A stretch of 64,000 nt of DNA from Escherichia coli (GCF_003991155.1 NZ_CP031293.1); one strand, 5' to 3'; shown: positions 35,303 through 44,475, counted from the stretch's first letter. Numbers and translations: made by a program. The notes: generated by a model not told the origin, from the sequence alone.

Positions 35303-35311
35303 TTTTACGCT

Positions 35312-35342
35312 GGCCTACAATTCTGTACTGCCATTGTAGGCC
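35312..35342. repeat. palindrome GGCCTACAAT-N11-ATTGTAGGCC between convergent pncA and ydjE; likely shared terminator / REP-like element
   Basis: Perfect 10-bp inverted repeat. Confidence 0.5.
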
Positions 35343-35394
35343 AAATAAAACACGTCAGTGGTACATCTGGCAATTGATGCCATCAACGAAAGAT

Positions 35395-36753
35395 TTAATT
35401 CACCTCAGAAATCTCTTCCAGCGACACCTTCCGCGTTTCGATGCCAAAAATGGAGAGAACCAGCGCACAGAGCACTAACATGACACCAAGCACCATAAAC
35501 ACCGTGATTGACCCATAATGCGTTAATAGTGCCGCAACGCCATAGGGCGTGAAGACTGCGACGATCCGTCCGACGGCATTAACGAAACCCGAACCACGCA
35601 GGCGTAAATGCGTTGGCCAAAGTTCCGGGATATAAACCGCCGACGCGAAGCACACATACATGTATAAAAAGAAGATCATCACCAGGCCATAGATTAAAAT
35701 CGCCCACTCTGTAGTCTGAATTGAATAGATATAGCCTAACACAGCAATAATAATAAGTAAGGCAGAGCCAAATAATCGACGAGGAAAATGATCAATAATT
35801 AATGCCGCAATAAATATCCCTACCGGAGCGCCAATCATAATAACAGCGGTCATTAATATTGATTTATCAACATCAATGCCGGAGTTAACAAATATGGTCG
35901 GTATCCATACGGTGATGGTATAAAGCGAAATGTTCATTGCAATTAAAACAGTAATCGCGACTAATGTACGTCGTAACATTTCCCCTTTAAACAGGAGCCA
36001 GAAGGTACCCTTGATTACCTTAACCTTGCTGTTGCTCTGGTTCAAAGTAAGCGGGGGTAAACGAATACTCTTCTCTCTTTCAATTTGCTGCTCTACTTCA
36101 CGAAGTTGGCTTTCTGCACCTGCGATTTGCCCTTTCCCCGCCAACCATCGAGGCGACTCAATAAAGTATTTACCTGAGAGAAACCAGGCTAACAGTATGC
36201 CAATACCACCCAGCAGAAACATTATCCGCCAACTAAAAAAAGCGATAACCACCACGCCTATCGCCGCAGACAACATGGGCGACCAGTTACCGACAAATGA
36301 GAGCCGCGCGGACCATTTTCCACGCACCGTCGCGGGGATAAACTCCGTAAATGAGGCATAGCCAACCATAATCAGCGCCCCCATTCCTGTTCCCATCAGG
36401 AAGCGAAAGAAGATGAGCCAGTACATATCAGGGACAAAAGCGGCCCCTGTTGCCGCAATACCGACGATGAGAAGATTTATGCGAAACGCCCTGCGCCGCC
36501 CAAAGTAGTCACCAATAAACCCACCGGTAAGAGAGCCGATGAAATAACCAAACATTAATGCCGAGGTAAAGGCGGCATTGAGGAGATTATTTGACCATCC
36601 ATTGCTTACCAGCTTTGCTAAAACAACATTGCCTGAATAACTCAAAAAACCCGTTAATAACAGACTAAAGCTTATAATACCAAATATACGATAATGAAAC
36701 CGGGCCAAAGGCAAGCGGTCCAGTCTTGCGCCAATTTGATCATATTGTTCCAT
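35395..36753 (-). CDS. ydjE: MFS transporter
   Basis: 452-aa, about 12 TM helices, sugar-porter-like GR[RK] motifs. Confidence 0.8.
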   Translation of the reverse strand: MEQYDQIGARLDRLPLARFHYRIFGIISFSLLLTGFLSYSGNVVLAKLVSNGWSNNLLNAAFTSALMFGYFIGSLTGGFIGDYFGRRRAFRINLLIVGIAATGAAFVPDMYWLIFFRFLMGTGMGALIMVGYASFTEFIPATVRGKWSARLSFVGNWSPMLSAAIGVVVIAFFSWRIMFLLGGIGILLAWFLSGKYFIESPRWLAGKGQIAGAESQLREVEQQIEREKSIRLPPLTLNQSNSKVKVIKGTFWLLFKGEMLRRTLVAITVLIAMNISLYTITVWIPTIFVNSGIDVDKSILMTAVIMIGAPVGIFIAALIIDHFPRRLFGSALLIIIAVLGYIYSIQTTEWAILIYGLVMIFFLYMYVCFASAVYIPELWPTHLRLRGSGFVNAVGRIVAVFTPYGVAALLTHYGSITVFMVLGVMLVLCALVLSIFGIETRKVSLEEISEVN

Positions 36754-36869
36754 TAGGTGCCTCGGATTTGCTAAAAAGGTAGCAATTGCGGCAAATTCAC
36801 TTGCCGCATCTTTATCATCATTTTATTTCCAGGCGCAGGAACAAATAATATTGACAACGTGTGCTTAAA

Positions 36870-37628
36870 TTACCACACCAGCTGGATATTATTGTCTTTG
36901 CAAAATGCTATCCACTCTGCACCCGGTGATTTATCAGTTATTATGTAATTAATATGACTAAAGTCAGCTAACTGGACAAAAGCTTTGCGATCAAACTTAG
37001 AGTGATCAACCAATAACGCAACTTCTGTCGCCTGACGGATCATTGTCTTTTTGATTTCAGCTTCCGCTTCGTTAGAGTCCAGCGCGCCGCTGTTAATATC
37101 AAGACCTTTACAACTCATTACCATGATATCGACATGGTAGCGGCTGATGATCTCTTTAGTAATTCTTCCTTGCAGGGAAAGTGTATTTTTGTTTAGTTCC
37201 CCCCCCGTTGAAACGACTTTAATTTCTGACTGAGCCAGAACATGAATCGCTTCCGCCGAGTTGGTTAGCAACGTCAGGTCACTACGGTCCTGTAACAATT
37301 TGAGCAATTCCATTACGGTACTACTGGAATCGGCTGCCATGGTGGTTTTATTGTCGATAAAGGGTAGTGCCTTGCGTGCAATAAGCTGCTTCTCTTCATA
37401 AAACGATGAAGCGCGCTTATAAAAATGGATATTCTCCGTCAACATCGCTGTATTTAAAACAGCACCACCATAGGTTCTGGTCAAAAAGCCTTCATCTTCC
37501 AGCTTCTCAAGATCGCGGCGAATGGTTTCTTCGGTTACCTGAAAAATCCCACTCAAATTTGAGACTGTCACCTTTTTATCGTTGGCAACCATTTGCTTAA
37601 TTGCCTGAATCCTGTCTTTTGCCGCCAC
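36870..37628 (-). CDS. ydjF: DeoR-family transcriptional regulator
   Basis: 252-aa ORF, N-terminal HTH plus DeoR C-terminal sugar-phosphate sensor domain. Confidence 0.8.
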   Translation of the reverse strand: MAAKDRIQAIKQMVANDKKVTVSNLSGIFQVTEETIRRDLEKLEDEGFLTRTYGGAVLNTAMLTENIHFYKRASSFYEEKQLIARKALPFIDNKTTMAADSSSTVMELLKLLQDRSDLTLLTNSAEAIHVLAQSEIKVVSTGGELNKNTLSLQGRITKEIISRYHVDIMVMSCKGLDINSGALDSNEAEAEIKKTMIRQATEVALLVDHSKFDRKAFVQLADFSHINYIITDKSPGAEWIAFCKDNNIQLVW

Positions 37629-37764
37629 GATTACACCCCTGTATCTTTTTACATCACATTAGCGCGATTATCGCATAACCGATGTTTACTTTCAAAATAA
37701 CCTGTTTGAATCACAGATTTTCATCACAGTTTTCACAGAAACAGAGGTGAATCGTGTTGAGTAT

Positions 37765-38745
37765 TTAACGCTCCAGGGCCTCTGCCATTTCCCTCATCAA
37801 TGTTGCGTCTGCATCCGATAAGTTGATATTCAATGCCGCGACATTTTCGCGTACCTGTTCCGGTGCAGTAGCCCCACTAAGAATGGAGATTAAATCACTC
37901 TGTTTTAATATCCACGCCAGTGCCAGAGTGGGAATTGTGCACTGATAACGAGCACAGAGTGGCTGCCACTGTTCAAGCATATCAATCACTTTCAGCATGT
38001 TTTCACGCTGGAACCAGACTTTATTTGCCCGAGCGCCACCCGGAACGTAATCACGAGTGATGGTACCGGTCAACAATCCCTGCTCTAGCGGGGAATAAAC
38101 CTGTACCACAATGCCATTATCACGACATAGCGGCAGCAGTTCGCTTTCCAATGCCCGGTCGAGGATACTGTATTTCGCCTGAATAATATCCAGTTCACCA
38201 TATTGCAGATACTCGCGGATATGGTCAGCATCGACGTTAGCAGCGCCTATAGCGCGAATTTTTCCTTCGGCCTTTAACTCATTGAGCACTGCGACAGTTT
38301 CAGCTATCGGCGTAAAAAATGGCGGCACCGACTGCCAGTGCGTCATGTAGATATCGATGTAATCAATACCCAGACGTTGCAAGCTGGCTTCTACCTCTTC
38401 GCGGATAGATTCCGGGGAAAGGTTTTTATACAACTGCCGATCGCCAACTTTGTTGAATAAACTCCCTTTTCGTTCCCAGACAATGCCGCATTTGGTTTCT
38501 ACTACAACCTGTTCACGGGGCAGTTTTTTTAACGCCTGACCGACGATAACTTCACTATTGCCAAAGTTATATCCTGGCGCAGTATCAATCAGATTAATGC
38601 CACAACGATGGGCTTCAAGAATCGTATCAATACATATTTGCCGATCGAGATCGCCATTCCATGCAGGACCGCCGCCAATGGCCCATGTCCCCAACCCCAT
38701 TCGCGAAAGCGTAATATCCGTTGTGCCTAAAGGTATCTTTTTCAT
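37765..38745 (-). CDS. ydjG: aldo-keto reductase
   Basis: 326-aa AKR-family ORF. Confidence 0.8.
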   Translation of the reverse strand: MKKIPLGTTDITLSRMGLGTWAIGGGPAWNGDLDRQICIDTILEAHRCGINLIDTAPGYNFGNSEVIVGQALKKLPREQVVVETKCGIVWERKGSLFNKVGDRQLYKNLSPESIREEVEASLQRLGIDYIDIYMTHWQSVPPFFTPIAETVAVLNELKAEGKIRAIGAANVDADHIREYLQYGELDIIQAKYSILDRALESELLPLCRDNGIVVQVYSPLEQGLLTGTITRDYVPGGARANKVWFQRENMLKVIDMLEQWQPLCARYQCTIPTLALAWILKQSDLISILSGATAPEQVRENVAALNINLSDADATLMREMAEALER

Positions 38746-38754
38746 TTGCCTTCA

Positions 38755-39702
38755 TTATCCTTCGTATTCTTCCAGCAATTGTTCGACCAGCTTTCTGTTT
38801 TTTACGCCGGTGGTGGCACCGACGCTTAGAACCGAGATAGCCGCCGTTGCATTGGCAAAGCGTGCGCATTCACGCAGATTTTTGCCTTCTAACAGTGCCG
38901 CAATAAAACCTGAAGCAAAGTTATCGCCCGCGCCAATGGTGTCGATGGCGGTTATTCCTGCGACCGCCGGCACCTTCATCGTCATGTCACCACGCTTGAT
39001 AAAGCAGCCGTCTTTACCCGTTTTAATCACCACCGTTTTTACGCCGCACGCAAGAAAGCAGTCAGCAATTTCATCCAGTGTCTCTTTCCCGGTGAGTAAT
39101 TTTGCCTCGGCAAAATTAGGAAACAGATAATCGACATAACTCAATGCTTCGCAAATATCATCCAGCGTTTCATTCAACCGCGGTTTGATCATATCGGCAC
39201 AGATAATCATCTGCCGGGCTTTAGCTTGCGTAAAAATTTCTGTTAGCGCTTTACCATCCAATAGTGGACTGTTGAAAATACTGGCCAGTGATAATAATTT
39301 CGCCTGGGAAAACCGCGCAAAATCAACATCGTCAATATTCAATTTCCACAGACTGCCGTTACGGTTTGTGACAAACGTCCGCTCGCCATCCTCCGTCACC
39401 AGTCCAACGTTAATAGAGGTATCTATGTTGACGTCCTGCTTCAGGCTTTGAATATCAATATTCTCTTTGCGGCAATGGTCGAGAATAAATTGCCCGGCGG
39501 CATCTTTACCAATACGACTCATTAATGCTGTGCGATGGCCCAGACGAGAAATAATTGTTGCTTCATTTATTGCATCACCCCCGGTGGTCATTGCGATTCT
39601 TTCAAGAGGATAAGAATCCACATCAAAGATATTTTTACTGACCGGTTGCAATGGAATATCAACAATAGCGGCACCTATACAAATAACGTCGAGATTATCC
39701 AT
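38755..39702 (-). CDS. ydjH: PfkB/ribokinase-family sugar kinase
   Basis: Start at MDNLDVICIGAAIVD; GAGDNF motif near C-terminus; 315 aa. Confidence 0.8.
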   Translation of the reverse strand: MDNLDVICIGAAIVDIPLQPVSKNIFDVDSYPLERIAMTTGGDAINEATIISRLGHRTALMSRIGKDAAGQFILDHCRKENIDIQSLKQDVNIDTSINVGLVTEDGERTFVTNRNGSLWKLNIDDVDFARFSQAKLLSLASIFNSPLLDGKALTEIFTQAKARQMIICADMIKPRLNETLDDICEALSYVDYLFPNFAEAKLLTGKETLDEIADCFLACGVKTVVIKTGKDGCFIKRGDMTMKVPAVAGITAIDTIGAGDNFASGFIAALLEGKNLRECARFANATAAISVLSVGATTGVKNRKLVEQLLEEYEG

Positions 39703-39706
39703 ATCA

Positions 39707-40543
39707 TTATTCCGCTTTGCCATCAGAACCGAACAGTTTAATTTTTTCCAATGCCCGTTCTTTTACAGCTTTACGTACTTCACGTTCTAAATGCAGGAAA
39801 GGCTGATCCTGGTTTTCTTTCACTGCTACCATTGCGGCCTGACAGAGCTCCGTATGAATGTTGATTTTCGCAATACCCAACGAAATTGCAGTTTTAATGT
39901 CGGCATCACTGATCCCCGATGCGCCGTGCAAAACCAGCGGAACAGAAACAGCATCGCGTACGCCTTTGACGACCTCAAAGTTCAATTGTGGCTCTGACGT
40001 ATAAACCCCATGCTGGTTGCCGATGGCGACAGCCAATGAGTCACAGCCCGTACGTTCAACAAATTCAGCCGCCTGGTCAGGATCGGTATAGTGATAGCCC
40101 GCCAGCGCTTCCTCATAAACGGTTTCATTACCGACATGCCCTAATTCCGCCTCTACCGGAATACCCAGCGGATGGAAGAAATCAACAGCCTCTTTGGTTA
40201 AACGAATATTTTCTTCGAAATCAAATGCGGAAGCATCACGCATTAATGAATTCATACCATGAGTCCAGGCGTTATGAATAATTTCCATACTCCGACCATG
40301 ATCCCAATGAGTTATTACCGGCACCGTTGCTTTTTTTGCCATTGATACCATCATGTGAGAGAAATCTTCAAATGAGGTGTTCCCGACAAAACCTGTACCA
40401 AAAGAAATAATAACCGGTGATTTCGCTTCTTCGGCTGCGTCGATAACGCCCATCAACATTTCTGCATTCCATACGTTAAAATGGGCAATTGCATAATGTT
40501 TATTTGTGGCATCGTTTTCCCAATATCTGATATCTGCGAGCAT
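39707..40543 (-). CDS. ydjI: class II (metal-dependent) aldolase, FBA/tagatose-bisphosphate aldolase-like
   Basis: 278-aa ORF. Confidence 0.8.
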   Translation of the reverse strand: MLADIRYWENDATNKHYAIAHFNVWNAEMLMGVIDAAEEAKSPVIISFGTGFVGNTSFEDFSHMMVSMAKKATVPVITHWDHGRSMEIIHNAWTHGMNSLMRDASAFDFEENIRLTKEAVDFFHPLGIPVEAELGHVGNETVYEEALAGYHYTDPDQAAEFVERTGCDSLAVAIGNQHGVYTSEPQLNFEVVKGVRDAVSVPLVLHGASGISDADIKTAISLGIAKINIHTELCQAAMVAVKENQDQPFLHLEREVRKAVKERALEKIKLFGSDGKAE

Positions 40544-40563
40544 ATTCTGTTCTCCCGTATTAA

Positions 40564-41607
40564 TTAATCGCTAATTTTAATAACGCCTTTAATAATGTCG
40601 CGTTTGTTGTTAACCGACTCTTCAAATGCCTGTTGTACATCCTGATAATCGTAAATATGTGTCACCATCGATTTCACATCTAATCGCCCTGAGGAAATAG
40701 CTTCAATCGTGACCGGATAACGATTGGCATAGCGGAATACTGTCTGGATAGTGACTTCGCGATTGATTTTGAGGAAATTGATTGCCGAATCGCCCGGTAC
40801 AGTACCAACAATCATAATTTTACCGCCGCGCATTACCAGATAAGGTGCCTGTTTAACGGTGACCGCAGAACCCGCTGTTTCGAAAACAATATCTGCGCCC
40901 ATTTCTTCGGTAAATTGCTGACAGCGTGCAATAGTGTCTTCTTTTGCGCCGTTAATAACCACTGTCGCGCCGAGCTGTTCCGCCATTGTCAGACGTTTTT
41001 CCAGCACATCAACGACGGCAATATCCGTAGCTCCCAGGCATTTGCACGCTTGCAACGTCATCAAACCAATACAACCCGCTCCCAGAATAATTATCTTCTT
41101 ACCCGGTTTAACATCTGCCAGCATCGCGGCATGCATCCCGACTGCGGCAGGCTCCACCAGCGCCCCTTCCATCGTGTCCATATTGTCGGGCAGTTTGTAA
41201 GTAAAGCTCTCCGGATGACACAGATAGTGCGTTAATGCGCCGCGGTAGTTAGGTTGTGTCGCCATAAAATCAACGTCCGGGCAGATGTTATATTTGCCTT
41301 CCAGACAGTAACGACAGTGACCGCAAGGAACGCCAGGTTCGATATTTACCCGATCCCCCGCTTTAAATTTGCGCACACGGCTTCCCACAGCCACAACCGT
41401 CCCGGCGCATTCATGACCCAGGCCAATTTCTTGATTTGGGTCTTTAGGCGGAATAAACGGGCCTGATTCGAAACCATGTACATCTGAACCACAAATACCG
41501 ACATATTCCACTTTAATCAAAACTTCATCTTCTTTAGGCACAGGTATTTCTGCTGAAATAATTTTCATTGTGCCCGGCACCTGCAATATTGCTTTTGAAT
41601 TTTTCAT
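40564..41607 (-). CDS. ydjJ: Zn-dependent alcohol/polyol dehydrogenase (MDR family)
   Basis: 347-aa ORF; GHECAG zinc motif and GAGCIG Rossmann motif. Confidence 0.8.
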   Translation of the reverse strand: MKNSKAILQVPGTMKIISAEIPVPKEDEVLIKVEYVGICGSDVHGFESGPFIPPKDPNQEIGLGHECAGTVVAVGSRVRKFKAGDRVNIEPGVPCGHCRYCLEGKYNICPDVDFMATQPNYRGALTHYLCHPESFTYKLPDNMDTMEGALVEPAAVGMHAAMLADVKPGKKIIILGAGCIGLMTLQACKCLGATDIAVVDVLEKRLTMAEQLGATVVINGAKEDTIARCQQFTEEMGADIVFETAGSAVTVKQAPYLVMRGGKIMIVGTVPGDSAINFLKINREVTIQTVFRYANRYPVTIEAISSGRLDVKSMVTHIYDYQDVQQAFEESVNNKRDIIKGVIKISD

Positions 41608-41623
41608 TTTGAATCCACCAGTA

Positions 41624-43003
41624 TTATTTATTGACTACTGCATCAATACTTAAACTTTCAACGGAGACACCTTTCGTTTCAATTCCAATGGTGGTGATAG
41701 CAATTGCGACAATAATTGAAACAGCCCCCAGAAGAATAAAGACTCCCGTTACGCCATAACTACTGAGCAGCACTGCAACGGCATAAGGTGCGGCAATACC
41801 ACTGATTCGCCCTACCGCATTCGCCAGACCGGAGCCACGTAATTTGGCCTCTGTCGGCCAGATTTCAGGGACATACACTGCCGAGGCATAGCAAACGTAC
41901 ATATAGACGAAAGTAATCAGGAAGAAACCAATCAGCGTTATGAGCAACATACTGGTTTGCAGTGAATAGATATATCCGAGCACCGCAATCAGGATTAATA
42001 GCCCCACACCCATTGTTTTACGCGGAATTTTATCCATCACCAGCATGGCAATAAATATACCAAATGGCGCACCAAACATACTCATGGTATTTAAAACAAT
42101 CGAGTCTTTTAAATTAATCCCCTGGGTCATGAATATTGTTGGCAACCAGTTAATTAGTGTGTACTGCACAACGTTCATGGCAATCAGCACACAAGAACCT
42201 AATATCACGCGTTTCAGTAATACTCCTGTCAGTAAGGCTGAATACGGCACCGCTTGTGGCGCTTTACCGTCATCAGCAATAACCACGGGCGGCAAAGGTT
42301 TTCCCGTCTGGCGTATGACGCCTTCTTCTATACTCCGCATGACTTTCTCGGCTTCCTGATACCGTCCGCGCGATTCCAGCCAGCGCGGGGATTCAGGAAA
42401 GTAGCGCCAGGCCAGCGCCGTAGCGATAAGCGACAATATTGCAGGGATAAGCAGTTGTACTCGCCAGTTCCACTCTGCACTAATCAGCGGCGTGAGTCCC
42501 ATCGCAATCAATGAACAGAGCGGATATGACCAGTTGCCAATAAAAGAAACCCGACTGGACCACGTTCCGCGATTTCTACCGGGCATATATTCGGTGAAAC
42601 CAGCAAACAGCGTCACCAGTAAAGCTCCCAGCCCAACGCCCATCACAAAACGGCAGGCAATAAGGAAATCCATATTCGGTGAAAAAGCACCGACCACCAT
42701 CGAGGCAATATGAATGGCCTCATAGAGGATGAACGCATTTCTGCGACCGGTTTTGTCACCGATGATGCCGCCAACCAGCGCACCGAGAAACATTCCGGCG
42801 GTCGTGATTGCTGAGAATGTGGCAGTGGTGGAATTATCTGTCCAGCCCAACGCTTTCAGCTGCGCGAGGATCAAGCCACCAACGGCATTACTCCAGCAGA
42901 CAAGCAAGCCAAACGCGACGATAGCAAACATTGACGAATGCCAGCGGCAATCCGGTAAGCGATCCAGCCGAGCACCACAATGCGGTTTTGTTATCTGTTC
43001 CAT
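41624..43003 (-). CDS. ydjK: MFS transporter
   Basis: 459-aa polytopic membrane protein, paralogous to ydjE. Confidence 0.8.
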   Translation of the reverse strand: MEQITKPHCGARLDRLPDCRWHSSMFAIVAFGLLVCWSNAVGGLILAQLKALGWTDNSTTATFSAITTAGMFLGALVGGIIGDKTGRRNAFILYEAIHIASMVVGAFSPNMDFLIACRFVMGVGLGALLVTLFAGFTEYMPGRNRGTWSSRVSFIGNWSYPLCSLIAMGLTPLISAEWNWRVQLLIPAILSLIATALAWRYFPESPRWLESRGRYQEAEKVMRSIEEGVIRQTGKPLPPVVIADDGKAPQAVPYSALLTGVLLKRVILGSCVLIAMNVVQYTLINWLPTIFMTQGINLKDSIVLNTMSMFGAPFGIFIAMLVMDKIPRKTMGVGLLILIAVLGYIYSLQTSMLLITLIGFFLITFVYMYVCYASAVYVPEIWPTEAKLRGSGLANAVGRISGIAAPYAVAVLLSSYGVTGVFILLGAVSIIVAIAITTIGIETKGVSVESLSIDAVVNK

Positions 43004-43029
43004 GCGATAACGCTCCTTCAGGAGAGTAG

Positions 43030-44106
43030 TTATTCATCAAAGTCGTAAGTCATGATCACTTTGATTGCGGTTTTATCGACCATCGCATCAAACCCTTCGC
43101 GCCATTGCGACAGGCCGATACGATGCGTGATCATCGGTTTGACTTTGATAGCGCCGCTGGCTAATAGCCTGATAGCGTTACGCCATGAGGTGGAGTCATA
43201 GGCCATATGCCCAATGATGCTTTTGTTCCAGGCGGTAATGTCATTAATCGAGAAATCAAGAGGTTTGAAGCCCATTCCAACGCGTACCACTTCCCCATTC
43301 GGGCGGAGCATTTCGATGGCTTGTTTCAATGCGATATTGGCACCGGAGCATTCAATCACCAGTCCCAGATTGTCTTTGCCACAAATTTGCTGGCAGCGCG
43401 CCACCACATCTTCGGTAGAACCATTTACTACTGCCGTCGCACCCAGTTCTTTTGCAACCGGGAAGCGGACCGCCACATCTTCTTGTAGACCAACGACGAC
43501 GATATTTACCGCCCCCATAATCCGCGCCATTTGTACGGAGAACAGCCCGAGTGGGCCAGTACCGATGACGACCACATCCTGACCAGGGAGGAATTTCGAT
43601 TGCTGCGCTATGGATTTGTAGGCATTACAGATAGGGTCAAGTACGGCTGCGTCCTCATAATCAACACCATCAGGGATTTCCCACAACGCATGACGATGAA
43701 TTTTGAGAATTTCACCAGGAACCAGACAATATTTGGAAAAACCACCGCCCCAGGTATTGTTATCCAGACCAAGGTTTACTTTTTCTGTACAACACAGAAA
43801 ATCACCTTGTTCACAGGCCGGACAAACGCCGCAGACGTGACCGCTGTTATCTGACACGACGCGTTGCCCCACTTTCCAGTCTTTGACTTTTTCACCAACC
43901 TGCGCAATACAACCTGCGAACTCATGGCCGCGGATAGAGTTAAACTCATCAGAACCGCTATCGACATTGTAGTGCTTCATGTCTGCGCCGCAGATTGCCG
44001 CGGCTTTAATTTCAATCACGACATCTTCCGGGCCACAAATGGGTTGTGGCACATCGATCATCTTGTAGCCGCCAAAGGCTTTGCCAAACCGAGCCAGTGC
44101 TTTCAT
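43030..44106 (-). CDS. ydjL: Zn-dependent alcohol/polyol dehydrogenase (MDR family)
   Basis: 358-aa ORF; GHEFAG zinc motif. Confidence 0.8.
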   Translation of the reverse strand: MKALARFGKAFGGYKMIDVPQPICGPEDVVIEIKAAAICGADMKHYNVDSGSDEFNSIRGHEFAGCIAQVGEKVKDWKVGQRVVSDNSGHVCGVCPACEQGDFLCCTEKVNLGLDNNTWGGGFSKYCLVPGEILKIHRHALWEIPDGVDYEDAAVLDPICNAYKSIAQQSKFLPGQDVVVIGTGPLGLFSVQMARIMGAVNIVVVGLQEDVAVRFPVAKELGATAVVNGSTEDVVARCQQICGKDNLGLVIECSGANIALKQAIEMLRPNGEVVRVGMGFKPLDFSINDITAWNKSIIGHMAYDSTSWRNAIRLLASGAIKVKPMITHRIGLSQWREGFDAMVDKTAIKVIMTYDFDE

Positions 44107-44475
44107 TGCGTCATCCTCTGTATTTTGTTTTGCTTAGATGGTCATCATACTTACCCACATGATTTTTGAGGTCAACATTAAATCTGTAAAACACAGATAA
44201 TGATCTGCGTTTTACAACTCAGATCACAATTACGCAGAAAATGGCTGGATCTGTTACAGGTTGATGGAAGGCGGAACGCAAAATGAGCAAATTTGAGAGG
44301 GATTACCGGCCAAATAGGTCTGAGACTTAAGTTCAGGAGAAGTCATTCAGGCGTGAACGCGACTGCAAGAGACCGGACTGGGGCTTTGCCTGGTCGTGAC
44401 GAGATAATTGAGATGAGTCGTGGGGTTATTGTTGGCTATCCCCTTTATAACCGCGGCAAAAAGGGGACAAACCAC

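Follow-up and report, generated by a model that had tools for sequence, protein, structure and literature searches.

We analysed a 64,000-nucleotide stretch of an Escherichia coli chromosome (NZ_CP031293.1; hereafter the window) and focused on the ydj cluster, in which eight consecutive minus-strand open reading frames (ORFs), ydjL, ydjK, ydjJ, ydjI, ydjH, ydjG, ydjF and ydjE, tile positions 35395-44106 (Table 1). A first-pass annotation of this DNA had described nine genes but named eight; eight are present, and we found no ninth ORF. Its assignment of each protein to a family was confirmed in every case by Pfam, at scores well above gathering, and its view that the cluster serves to catabolize a sugar, polyol or sugar acid is, in our judgement, correct. 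The five gaps between consecutive genes from ydjL to ydjG are 26, 16, 20, 4 and 9 bp, in agreement with the 4-26 bp given there, and the two remaining gaps are wider (136 bp between ydjG and ydjF, and 116 bp between ydjF and ydjE). Several E. coli chromosomes that already carry the annotated names ydjE to ydjL match the DNA of the locus with 100% identity, and its earlier description as an annotated, conserved cluster is correct. For ydjH, the annotated start at 39702 (315 amino acids) agrees with the crystallized protein in the Protein Data Bank (PDB); the longest ORF begins at 39723 and overlaps ydjI by 17 nucleotides.

Table 1. Genes and sequence features of the ydj cluster, in window coordinates (aa, amino acids; MDR, medium-chain dehydrogenase/reductase; MFS, major facilitator superfamily).
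Feature	Position	Strand	Description
ydjL	43030..44106	-	Zn-dependent MDR dehydrogenase, 358 aa, first gene of operon
ydjK	41624..43003	-	MFS transporter, 459 aa
ydjJ	40564..41607	-	Zn-dependent polyol-dehydrogenase-type MDR, 347 aa
ydjI	39707..40543	-	Class II metal-dependent aldolase, 278 aa
ydjH	38755..39702	-	PfkB-family sugar kinase, 315 aa
ydjG	37765..38745	-	Aldo-keto reductase, 326 aa
ydjF	36870..37628	-	DeoR/GlpR-family regulator, 252 aa, GTG start
ydjE	35395..36753	-	Second MFS transporter, 452 aa, YdjK paralogue
Predicted YdjF operator O1	44183..44197	-	TCTGTGTTTTACAGA; 7 nt upstream of ydjL -35; kept in Enterobacterales leaders
Predicted ydjL promoter	44147..44175	-	-35 TTGACC 44175-44170, 17-nt spacer, weak -10 AAGTAT 44152-44147
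Conserved leader element (candidate Crp site)	44210..44231	-	TTGTGATCTGAGTTGTRAAA; perfect TGTGA left half, poor right half; near-invariant in leader alignment
Intragenic palindrome	43784..43798	-	TCTGTGTTGTACAGA; about 310 nt into ydjL, 399 bp from O1
Predicted YdjF operator, ydjF leader	37703..37717	-	TCTGTGATTCAAACA; 7 nt upstream of -35 TTGAAA
Predicted ydjF promoter	37695-37667	-	TTGAAA-17-GATAAT with TG, 10/12 matches, strong
12-bp inverted repeat flanking ydjF promoter	37635..37748	-	5' arm ACCTCTGTTTCT 37748-37737; 3' arm AGATACAGGGGT 37646-37635
GC-rich hairpin	36787..36808	-	GCGGCAA-N6-TTGCCGC; ydjF-ydjE spacer, terminator-like, present in fold
Presence/absence unit	35308..44465	.	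9,158 bp, eight genes plus ydjL leader

The signature motifs of the kinase YdjH and the aldolase YdjI are intact. YdjH matched Pfam PfkB (PF00294, 249 bits), carries GG at residues 41-42, NFAE at 196-199 and DTIGAGD at 254-260, and has solved structures (PDB 3H49/3IN1). Its best NCBIfam match was the IolC N-domain model TIGR04382, at 141.9 bits against a cutoff of 300, which rules out YdjH as an equivalog of IolC (5-dehydro-2-deoxygluconokinase). YdjI matched F_bP_aldolase (PF01116, 297 versus 25.5 bits) and passed the cutoff of the NCBIfam subfamily TIGR00167 (323.5 versus 215.6 bits); it reached the cutoff of no NCBIfam equivalog, whether for fructose-bisphosphate aldolase, tagatose-bisphosphate aldolase or any other enzyme. 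The motifs DHG (81-83), EAELG (131-135) and LVLHGAS (203-209) are all present, and the protein matches PDB 6OFU, titled 'YdjI aldolase', a structure described with two Zn sites (PMC11194214).

Both enzymes have been studied in vitro (Huddleston and Raushel 2019; Raushel and Holden groups, Biochemistry), and we took their specificities from the citing papers PMC9602453 and PMC11194214. According to these papers, YdjI interconverts dihydroxyacetone phosphate (DHAP) plus L-arabinuronate and octuluronate-1-phosphate (PMC11194214, PMC9602453), YdjH and YdjI prefer 2-ketoses of 7-9 carbons with a carboxylate end (PMC9602453), and the best YdjI substrate, L-glycero-L-galacto-octuluronate(-1-phosphate), "has no natural abundance" (PMC9602453). 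The first-pass annotation had called the natural substrate unresolved and had named a substrate and pathway already in the literature as what would overturn its reading. Half of such an assignment, the two in vitro specificities, has been published since 2019; as to the other half, no physiological substrate has been established, in that no paper in the open-access literature that we searched assigns one to the cluster, and a 2022 paper calls the enzymology of the operon "only partially determined" (PMC9602453). The cluster is an already known, partly characterized orphan operon and not a discovery.

YdjJ and YdjL both contain the Pfam domains ADH_N and ADH_zinc_N. Each of these two MDR proteins has CGxD at residue 39, together with GHE (at 60 in YdjL and 64 in YdjJ), a Cys4 structural-Zn site of the form C..C..C.{7}C (at 92 or 95, respectively) and GxGxxG (at 182 or 176, respectively); in YdjL, the motifs read GHE, CGAD, Cys4 structural-Zn and GTGPLG. 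The two proteins are 28% identical. PDB 5VM2, which matches YdjJ over its full length (768 bits, E 8e-231), is taken to be YdjJ itself. The nearest characterized relatives of YdjJ are ketose reductase/sorbitol dehydrogenase (1E3J, 1PL6), L-arabinitol 4-dehydrogenase and xylitol dehydrogenase, which turn the C2 carbinol of a polyol into a 2-ketose, the type of product that YdjH phosphorylates. The nearest solved relatives of YdjL are threonine 3-dehydrogenases, at only about 150 bits. Three equivalogs were ruled out for YdjL and YdjJ, respectively: Tdh, the best in NCBIfam (217 and 206 versus 380 bits), IdnD (117 and 176 versus 469 bits) and GatD (108 and 166 versus 550 bits). A sorbitol dehydrogenase of Paenibacillus named 'ydjJ' is a homologue that shares the name; it backs the enzyme class and not the function in E. 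coli.

YdjG, which matched Pfam Aldo_ket_red (PF00248, 223 bits), is the sole protein of the cluster to reach any NCBIfam equivalog cutoff, that of NF049922 (NADH-dependent methylglyoxal reductase YdjG; 627.6 versus 550 bits). Its catalytic Asp/Tyr motif, DTAPGY, lies at residues 54-59; for the Lys and His of the tetrad, we relied on visual inspection of the sequence. Its nearest solved relatives are the AKR11 protein GSP69 and IolS, and it has been reported to reduce methylglyoxal in vitro (PMC6561318).

The two transporters, YdjK and YdjE, matched Pfam MFS_1/Sugar_tr and are paralogues with 44% identity. Both fell below every subfamily and equivalog cutoff in NCBIfam; the best family was the aromatic acid:H+ symporters (AAHS), at 158 bits for YdjE and 147 bits for YdjK against a cutoff of 418. 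Overexpression of ydjK improved growth in high salt (PMC6561318), and metabolomics of YdjE knockout and overexpression strains gave only a tentative indication that YdjE exports 3-phenyllactate and acetophenone (PMC10971958).

The regulator YdjF matched HTH_DeoR (PF08220, 62.6 bits) and DeoRC (PF00455, 167.8 bits), reached no named equivalog cutoff in NCBIfam, and is listed as an uncharacterized DeoR-family transcription factor (PMC4797297). Near-invariant blocks were seen when the leaders of ydjL and ydjF were aligned across 22 orthologues from Enterobacterales. A 15-bp palindrome, TCTKTG-N3-CAMAGA, ends exactly 7 nucleotides upstream of the -35 element at both the ydjL promoter (PydjL) and the ydjF promoter (PydjF). 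In the ydjL promoter, TTGAC is invariant and AAGTAT nearly invariant across the 22 leaders, and many species have a CAAAGA-type half-site within the promoter spacer; in the ydjF leader, the block AAATCTGTGATTCAGACA is conserved across genera. We used only palindrome matches with at most one mismatch, of which the 64 kb contain three against 0.56 expected, all inside the cluster; at up to two mismatches, the palindrome was not enriched in the window (13 versus 8.1 expected).

Related loci, amounting to 1.52 Mb, gave the same picture. Nearly half of the palindrome matches (59 of 121) lay no more than 260 nucleotides upstream of ydjL or ydjF orthologues, and TTGA followed exactly 7 nucleotides downstream in 52 of 124 matches, with at most 4 at any other offset. 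In Firmicutes clusters, where YdjF shares only about 50% identity, TTGACA is again preceded by TCTKTGAAACAMAGA at a distance of 7 nucleotides, often with a second copy of the palindrome about 103 bp upstream. Because the same position is kept in these orthologous clusters, the palindrome is probably the operator of YdjF. Conservation of the YdjF recognition helix was rejected as support for this prediction, as TIRRDL is a family-wide motif. In Lachnospiraceae, further matches fall in the short interval between ydjF and an adjacent gene for an SDF-family symporter, which would link this symporter to the YdjF regulon.

The third match in the window, inside ydjL, is retained in most Enterobacterales loci. 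It is a possible auxiliary operator of the DeoR/GlpR looping kind; equally, it encodes LCCTE, and coding constraint alone could explain its conservation. The most likely role of YdjF is that of a repressor, with an activator role as the second option. The position of the palindrome, centred near -50, is compatible with either role, and FucR is a DeoR-family member that acts as an activator.

Expression of the operon has been addressed by others. The ydjLKJIHG genes are among the novel validated Crp-activated operons, on the basis of RNA sequencing with a crp null mutant and promoter binding (PMC8085971), and the conserved TTGTGATCTGAGTTGTRAAA element in the ydjL leader is a candidate for the reported Crp site. 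The ydjL promoter was off in culture and consistently on during transit through the mouse gut (PMC6561318). A lacZ fusion to the ydjL 5' untranslated region (UTR) and ORF increased more than twofold in a rho mutant, indicating Rho-dependent attenuation (bioRxiv 2020.07.18.207399). The intragenic palindrome lies in the ydjL ORF, and Rho termination has been reported within the ydjL 5' UTR or ORF.

Co-transcription, on which the first-pass reading depended, finds support over only part of the cluster. The gaps from ydjL to ydjG fit one unit, and ydjLKJIHG is treated as one operon in the literature (PMC6561318, PMC8085971), but ydjF has a strong predicted promoter of its own and ydjE is preceded by a conserved hairpin and can be lost on its own. 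For these reasons, the eight genes, as judged from their sequence, are not one transcription unit.

The ydjF promoter is flanked by a 12-bp inverted repeat, the 3' arm of which covers the ydjF Shine-Dalgarno sequence. As RNA, this repeat folds with a z score of -4.0, and 17-19 of 19 species retain the helix, with essentially no compensatory changes. The repeat could silence translation of ydjF on read-through transcripts, with transcription from the internal promoter starting inside the repeat. A second option is that the arms, which contain TCTGT and ACAGA, act as half-sites in DNA. The hairpin that lies in the spacer between ydjF and ydjE retains its stem in different genera through paired substitutions, such as CGGTAA/TTACCG and CGACAG/CTGTCG, and it may be the ydjF terminator or a leader element of ydjE. 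We found no YdjF-type palindrome upstream of ydjE in this spacer, which, together with the conserved hairpin, suggests that ydjE is separately controlled. An Rfam scan of the whole 64-kb window returned no family at gathering score.

We then compared the neighbourhood of the cluster across taxa, a comparison that the first-pass annotation had proposed for other Enterobacterales. A scan of species-representative genomes with YdjI yielded 148 relatives. Enterobacterales retain all eight genes in order (Escherichia, Citrobacter, the Klebsiella oxytoca group, Raoultella, Yokenella, Budvicia, Enterobacillus and Symbiopectobacterium). The order L-(K)-J-I-H-G-F is also kept in Lachnospiraceae, Clostridium, Mediterraneibacter, Blautia, Megamonas, Veillonella, Anaerococcus, Erysipelotrichaceae, Atopobiaceae and Synergistaceae, so that this synteny spans gut Firmicutes, Actinobacteria and Synergistetes (for example, locus L028, 5267-14200); the bee-gut Gilliamella has the same gene set in a rearranged order. 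Across the non-Enterobacterales clusters, YdjI is 74-87% and YdjL 70-86% identical. Such identities between phyla appear too high for vertical descent, and our preferred explanation is a cassette that gut bacteria have exchanged horizontally.

The partner genes vary between these clusters. In 30 non-Enterobacterales loci, an RPE-family epimerase closest to AlsE is inserted between L and K; Firmicutes and Atopobiaceae clusters often have it, and the Firmicutes epimerase scored 254 bits against the 271-bit cutoff for D-allulose-6-phosphate 3-epimerase. An SDF-family symporter adjoins ydjF in 28 loci. Many non-Enterobacterales loci have other transporter types in place of ydjK, and those that lack ydjK carry a Liv-type ABC or a CUT1 sugar ABC system, some with an added FGGY kinase. 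As CUT1 ABC systems and FGGY kinases occur in some clusters, we dropped the transporter families alone as decisive evidence for an anionic substrate. ydjE is essentially specific to Enterobacterales and is missing from most other clusters.

Within E. coli, at least 80% of the cluster region is present in 4265 of 5425 complete genomes, and about 21% are without it; nearly all of the remaining genomes show a clean absence of the unit. This figure agrees with the prevalence by phylogroup given in PMC9602453, roughly 30% in B1 versus about 97-100% in A and B2. The G+C content of the unit is 46.3%, compared with 50.2% for the rest of the window. Where present, the cluster is under strong purifying selection: the ratio of non-synonymous to synonymous substitution rates (dN/dS) against E. 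whittamii was 0.010-0.064 for all eight genes. We used the E. whittamii values and equal-length pairs with finite dS; values against Citrobacter and Klebsiella for ydjE, ydjG and ydjJ were discarded as artefacts of mis-registered pairs of unequal length.

On balance, we think it probable that the ydj cluster acts as an inducible operon for breaking down an acidic sugar or polyol-acid that originates in the gut and probably has at least seven carbons. A kinase, a DHAP-forming aldolase, transporters, a DeoR-type regulator and activation by Crp together make up the architecture of a carbohydrate catabolic operon. The substrate would enter through the MFS carrier YdjK, with its paralogue YdjE in an accessory role, and the sorbitol-dehydrogenase-like YdjJ would oxidize its penultimate carbinol to give a 2-ketose; YdjL would supply a second redox step. 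YdjH would then phosphorylate the C1 hydroxyl at the expense of ATP, and the Zn aldolase YdjI would cleave the product by a retro-aldol reaction into DHAP and an aldehyde-acid, such as L-arabinuronate, both as seen by others in vitro. The aldehyde-acid might finally be reduced by the aldo-keto reductase YdjG. Control would combine the Crp dependence of PydjL reported by others with predicted binding of YdjF to the palindromes of PydjL and PydjF. By analogy with other DeoR-family regulators, the effector of YdjF is probably a phosphorylated ketose. Rho termination inside ydjL, also reported by others, would add a further off-state in laboratory culture.

Several points weigh against this proposal. 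The best in vitro substrate is not known from nature, and the true substrate may differ from it chemically; the kcat/Km published for it in the 2019 papers is reportedly modest. The transporters of related clusters are mixed (MFS, SDF and Liv-type, with CUT1 sugar ABC systems and FGGY kinases in some), and the AlsE-like ketose-phosphate 3-epimerase in Firmicutes, CUT1 and FGGY fit a neutral ketose equally well. The roles given to YdjL, YdjJ, YdjK and YdjF come from sequence comparison, the YdjF operator is itself a prediction, and a simple steric repressor would not usually have its palindrome centred near -50.

The most serious competitor takes a rare neutral polyol or ketose to be the natural substrate, such as a hexitol of the allitol/allulose type or a heptitol, and the preference for octuluronate to be a side activity. 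The closeness of YdjJ to sorbitol, xylitol and arabinitol dehydrogenases, the Sugar_tr matches of YdjE and YdjK, the near-cutoff score of the Firmicutes epimerase for D-allulose-6-phosphate 3-epimerase, and the clusters that replace ydjK with a CUT1 sugar ABC system and an FGGY kinase all speak for this reading. However, it would leave aside the preference of YdjH and YdjI for substrates of 7-9 carbons with a carboxylate (or phosphate) terminus, as reported in PMC9602453; the SDF (DctA/GltP-like) and Liv-type partners are typical carriers of organic anions or amino acids, and the best sub-threshold family of YdjE and YdjK is that of aromatic-acid:H+ symporters. We therefore regard a neutral substrate as unlikely.

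It is improbable that the cluster is a stress or detoxification module, directed at methylglyoxal-type aldehydes or at acid or osmotic tolerance, and not a carbon-source pathway. In its favour, the name of YdjG reflects its in vitro activity as a methylglyoxal reductase, lactic-acid-resistant E. coli from meat plants are enriched in ydj genes (PMC9602453), and overexpressed ydjK raised growth in high salt (PMC6561318), but the combination of kinase, aldolase, transporters, DeoR-type regulator and Crp control is that of a classic carbohydrate catabolic operon, and the link to acid resistance is confounded by phylogroup, with ydjI found in 97% of A isolates versus 30% of B1 isolates (PMC9602453). 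Still harder to credit is the view that the cluster survives in E. coli as a cryptic, dispensable leftover of a cassette gained by horizontal transfer and has no current function there, because the clean absence from about 21% of complete genomes, the Rho-attenuated silence in laboratory media (PMC6561318; bioRxiv 2020.07.18.207399), the G+C content below that of the surroundings and the disruption of ydjE by an insertion sequence (IS) in O157:H7 are opposed by dN/dS values of 0.01-0.06 in all eight genes, intact catalytic motifs, a promoter and predicted operator conserved across genera, and specific induction of the promoter in the mouse gut (PMC6561318).

Within the favoured reading of an acidic sugar pathway, we consider it possible, although doubtful, that the cluster is a gut-restricted, exchanged cassette that catabolizes a natural acid sugar not yet recognized as a metabolite of the gut environment. 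If this were true, YdjF and TCTKTG-N3-CAMAGA could serve as a biosensor to fish the inducer from gut contents. With three enzyme structures solved, two in vitro specificities and a gut-active promoter, ydj is one of the better-defined orphan catabolic pathways of E. coli K-12. Naming its substrate would add a nutrient niche common to about 79% of E. coli and many gut anaerobes, and could explain the loss of the cluster in much of phylogroup B1. What is new here is modest, namely the predicted cross-phylum YdjF operator, the cross-phylum partner genes and the 9.16-kb presence/absence unit; the operator prediction and the list of co-regulated partners make a search for the inducer more tractable.

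The proposed chemistry can be set beside known systems. In our view, the closest mechanistic analogue of YdjH and YdjI is the IolC/IolJ pair of Bacillus subtilis, in which a PfkB kinase followed by a class II aldolase turns a keto sugar with a terminal carboxylate into DHAP and an aldehyde-acid, steps of myo-inositol catabolism reportedly described by Yoshida et al. in 2008. In both systems, a keto-acid sugar with its carbonyl beside a terminal CH2OH and a carboxylate at the far end would meet first a PfkB kinase and then a class II aldolase of the fructose-bisphosphate aldolase family; the IolC N-domain is also the best NCBIfam match of YdjH, and IolS is among the nearest structures to YdjG. 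By contrast, the ydj cluster is without genes for inositol dehydrogenase, dehydratase and hydrolase, and its reported substrates are fully hydroxylated ketouronates of 7-9 carbons, not 2-deoxy-5-keto-gluconate.

The gat (galactitol) and aga (N-acetylgalactosamine) operons of E. coli resemble ydj in having a class II ketose-bisphosphate aldolase (GatY and KbaY/AgaY, which match YdjI at about 170 bits) and a repressor of the DeoR type, AgaR being among the best matches of YdjF, and gat also has a Zn-dependent MDR dehydrogenase (GatD, 140 bits to YdjJ). They differ in taking up the substrate through the phosphotransferase system, in possessing a GatZ/KbaZ partner subunit and in using substrates that bear a phosphate at each end, whereas ydj relies on MFS carriers and on a PfkB kinase that acts on C1 of the free ketose, lacks a Z subunit, and has an additional aldo-keto reductase and a second MDR. 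In the idn (L-idonate) and lgo (L-galactonate) systems of E. coli, a Zn-dependent MDR likewise oxidizes the penultimate carbon of an aldonate to give a keto-uronate after MFS uptake, and IdnD-like models match YdjJ below their cutoff (176 versus 469 bits); however, the products of these systems enter Entner-Doudoroff or uronate routes through reduction or dehydration instead of cleavage by a kinase and an aldolase. Regulation recalls the deo and glp regulons, in which DeoR/GlpR-type regulators act through multiple operators: ydj has a DeoR-family regulator, palindromes, a possible intragenic operator 399 bp away, Crp co-control and, by analogy, a phosphorylated-sugar effector. It differs in that the main predicted operator lies at about -57 to -43, upstream of the -35 element and not over the core promoter.

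Outside the cluster, the neighbours are pncA on the ydjE side and yeaC, msrB and gapA on the ydjL side, with yeaC as the next gene upstream of ydjL. In E. coli genomes that lack the cluster, homology to the window ends at 35307 and resumes at 44466, leaving 145 bp between pncA and yeaC; this 145-bp replacement (L082) contains a hairpin resembling repetitive extragenic palindromic (REP) elements. In O157:H7 (L083, 796-3467; Z1504), an IS3-family element splits ydjE, and the other seven genes are annotated as intact coding sequences.

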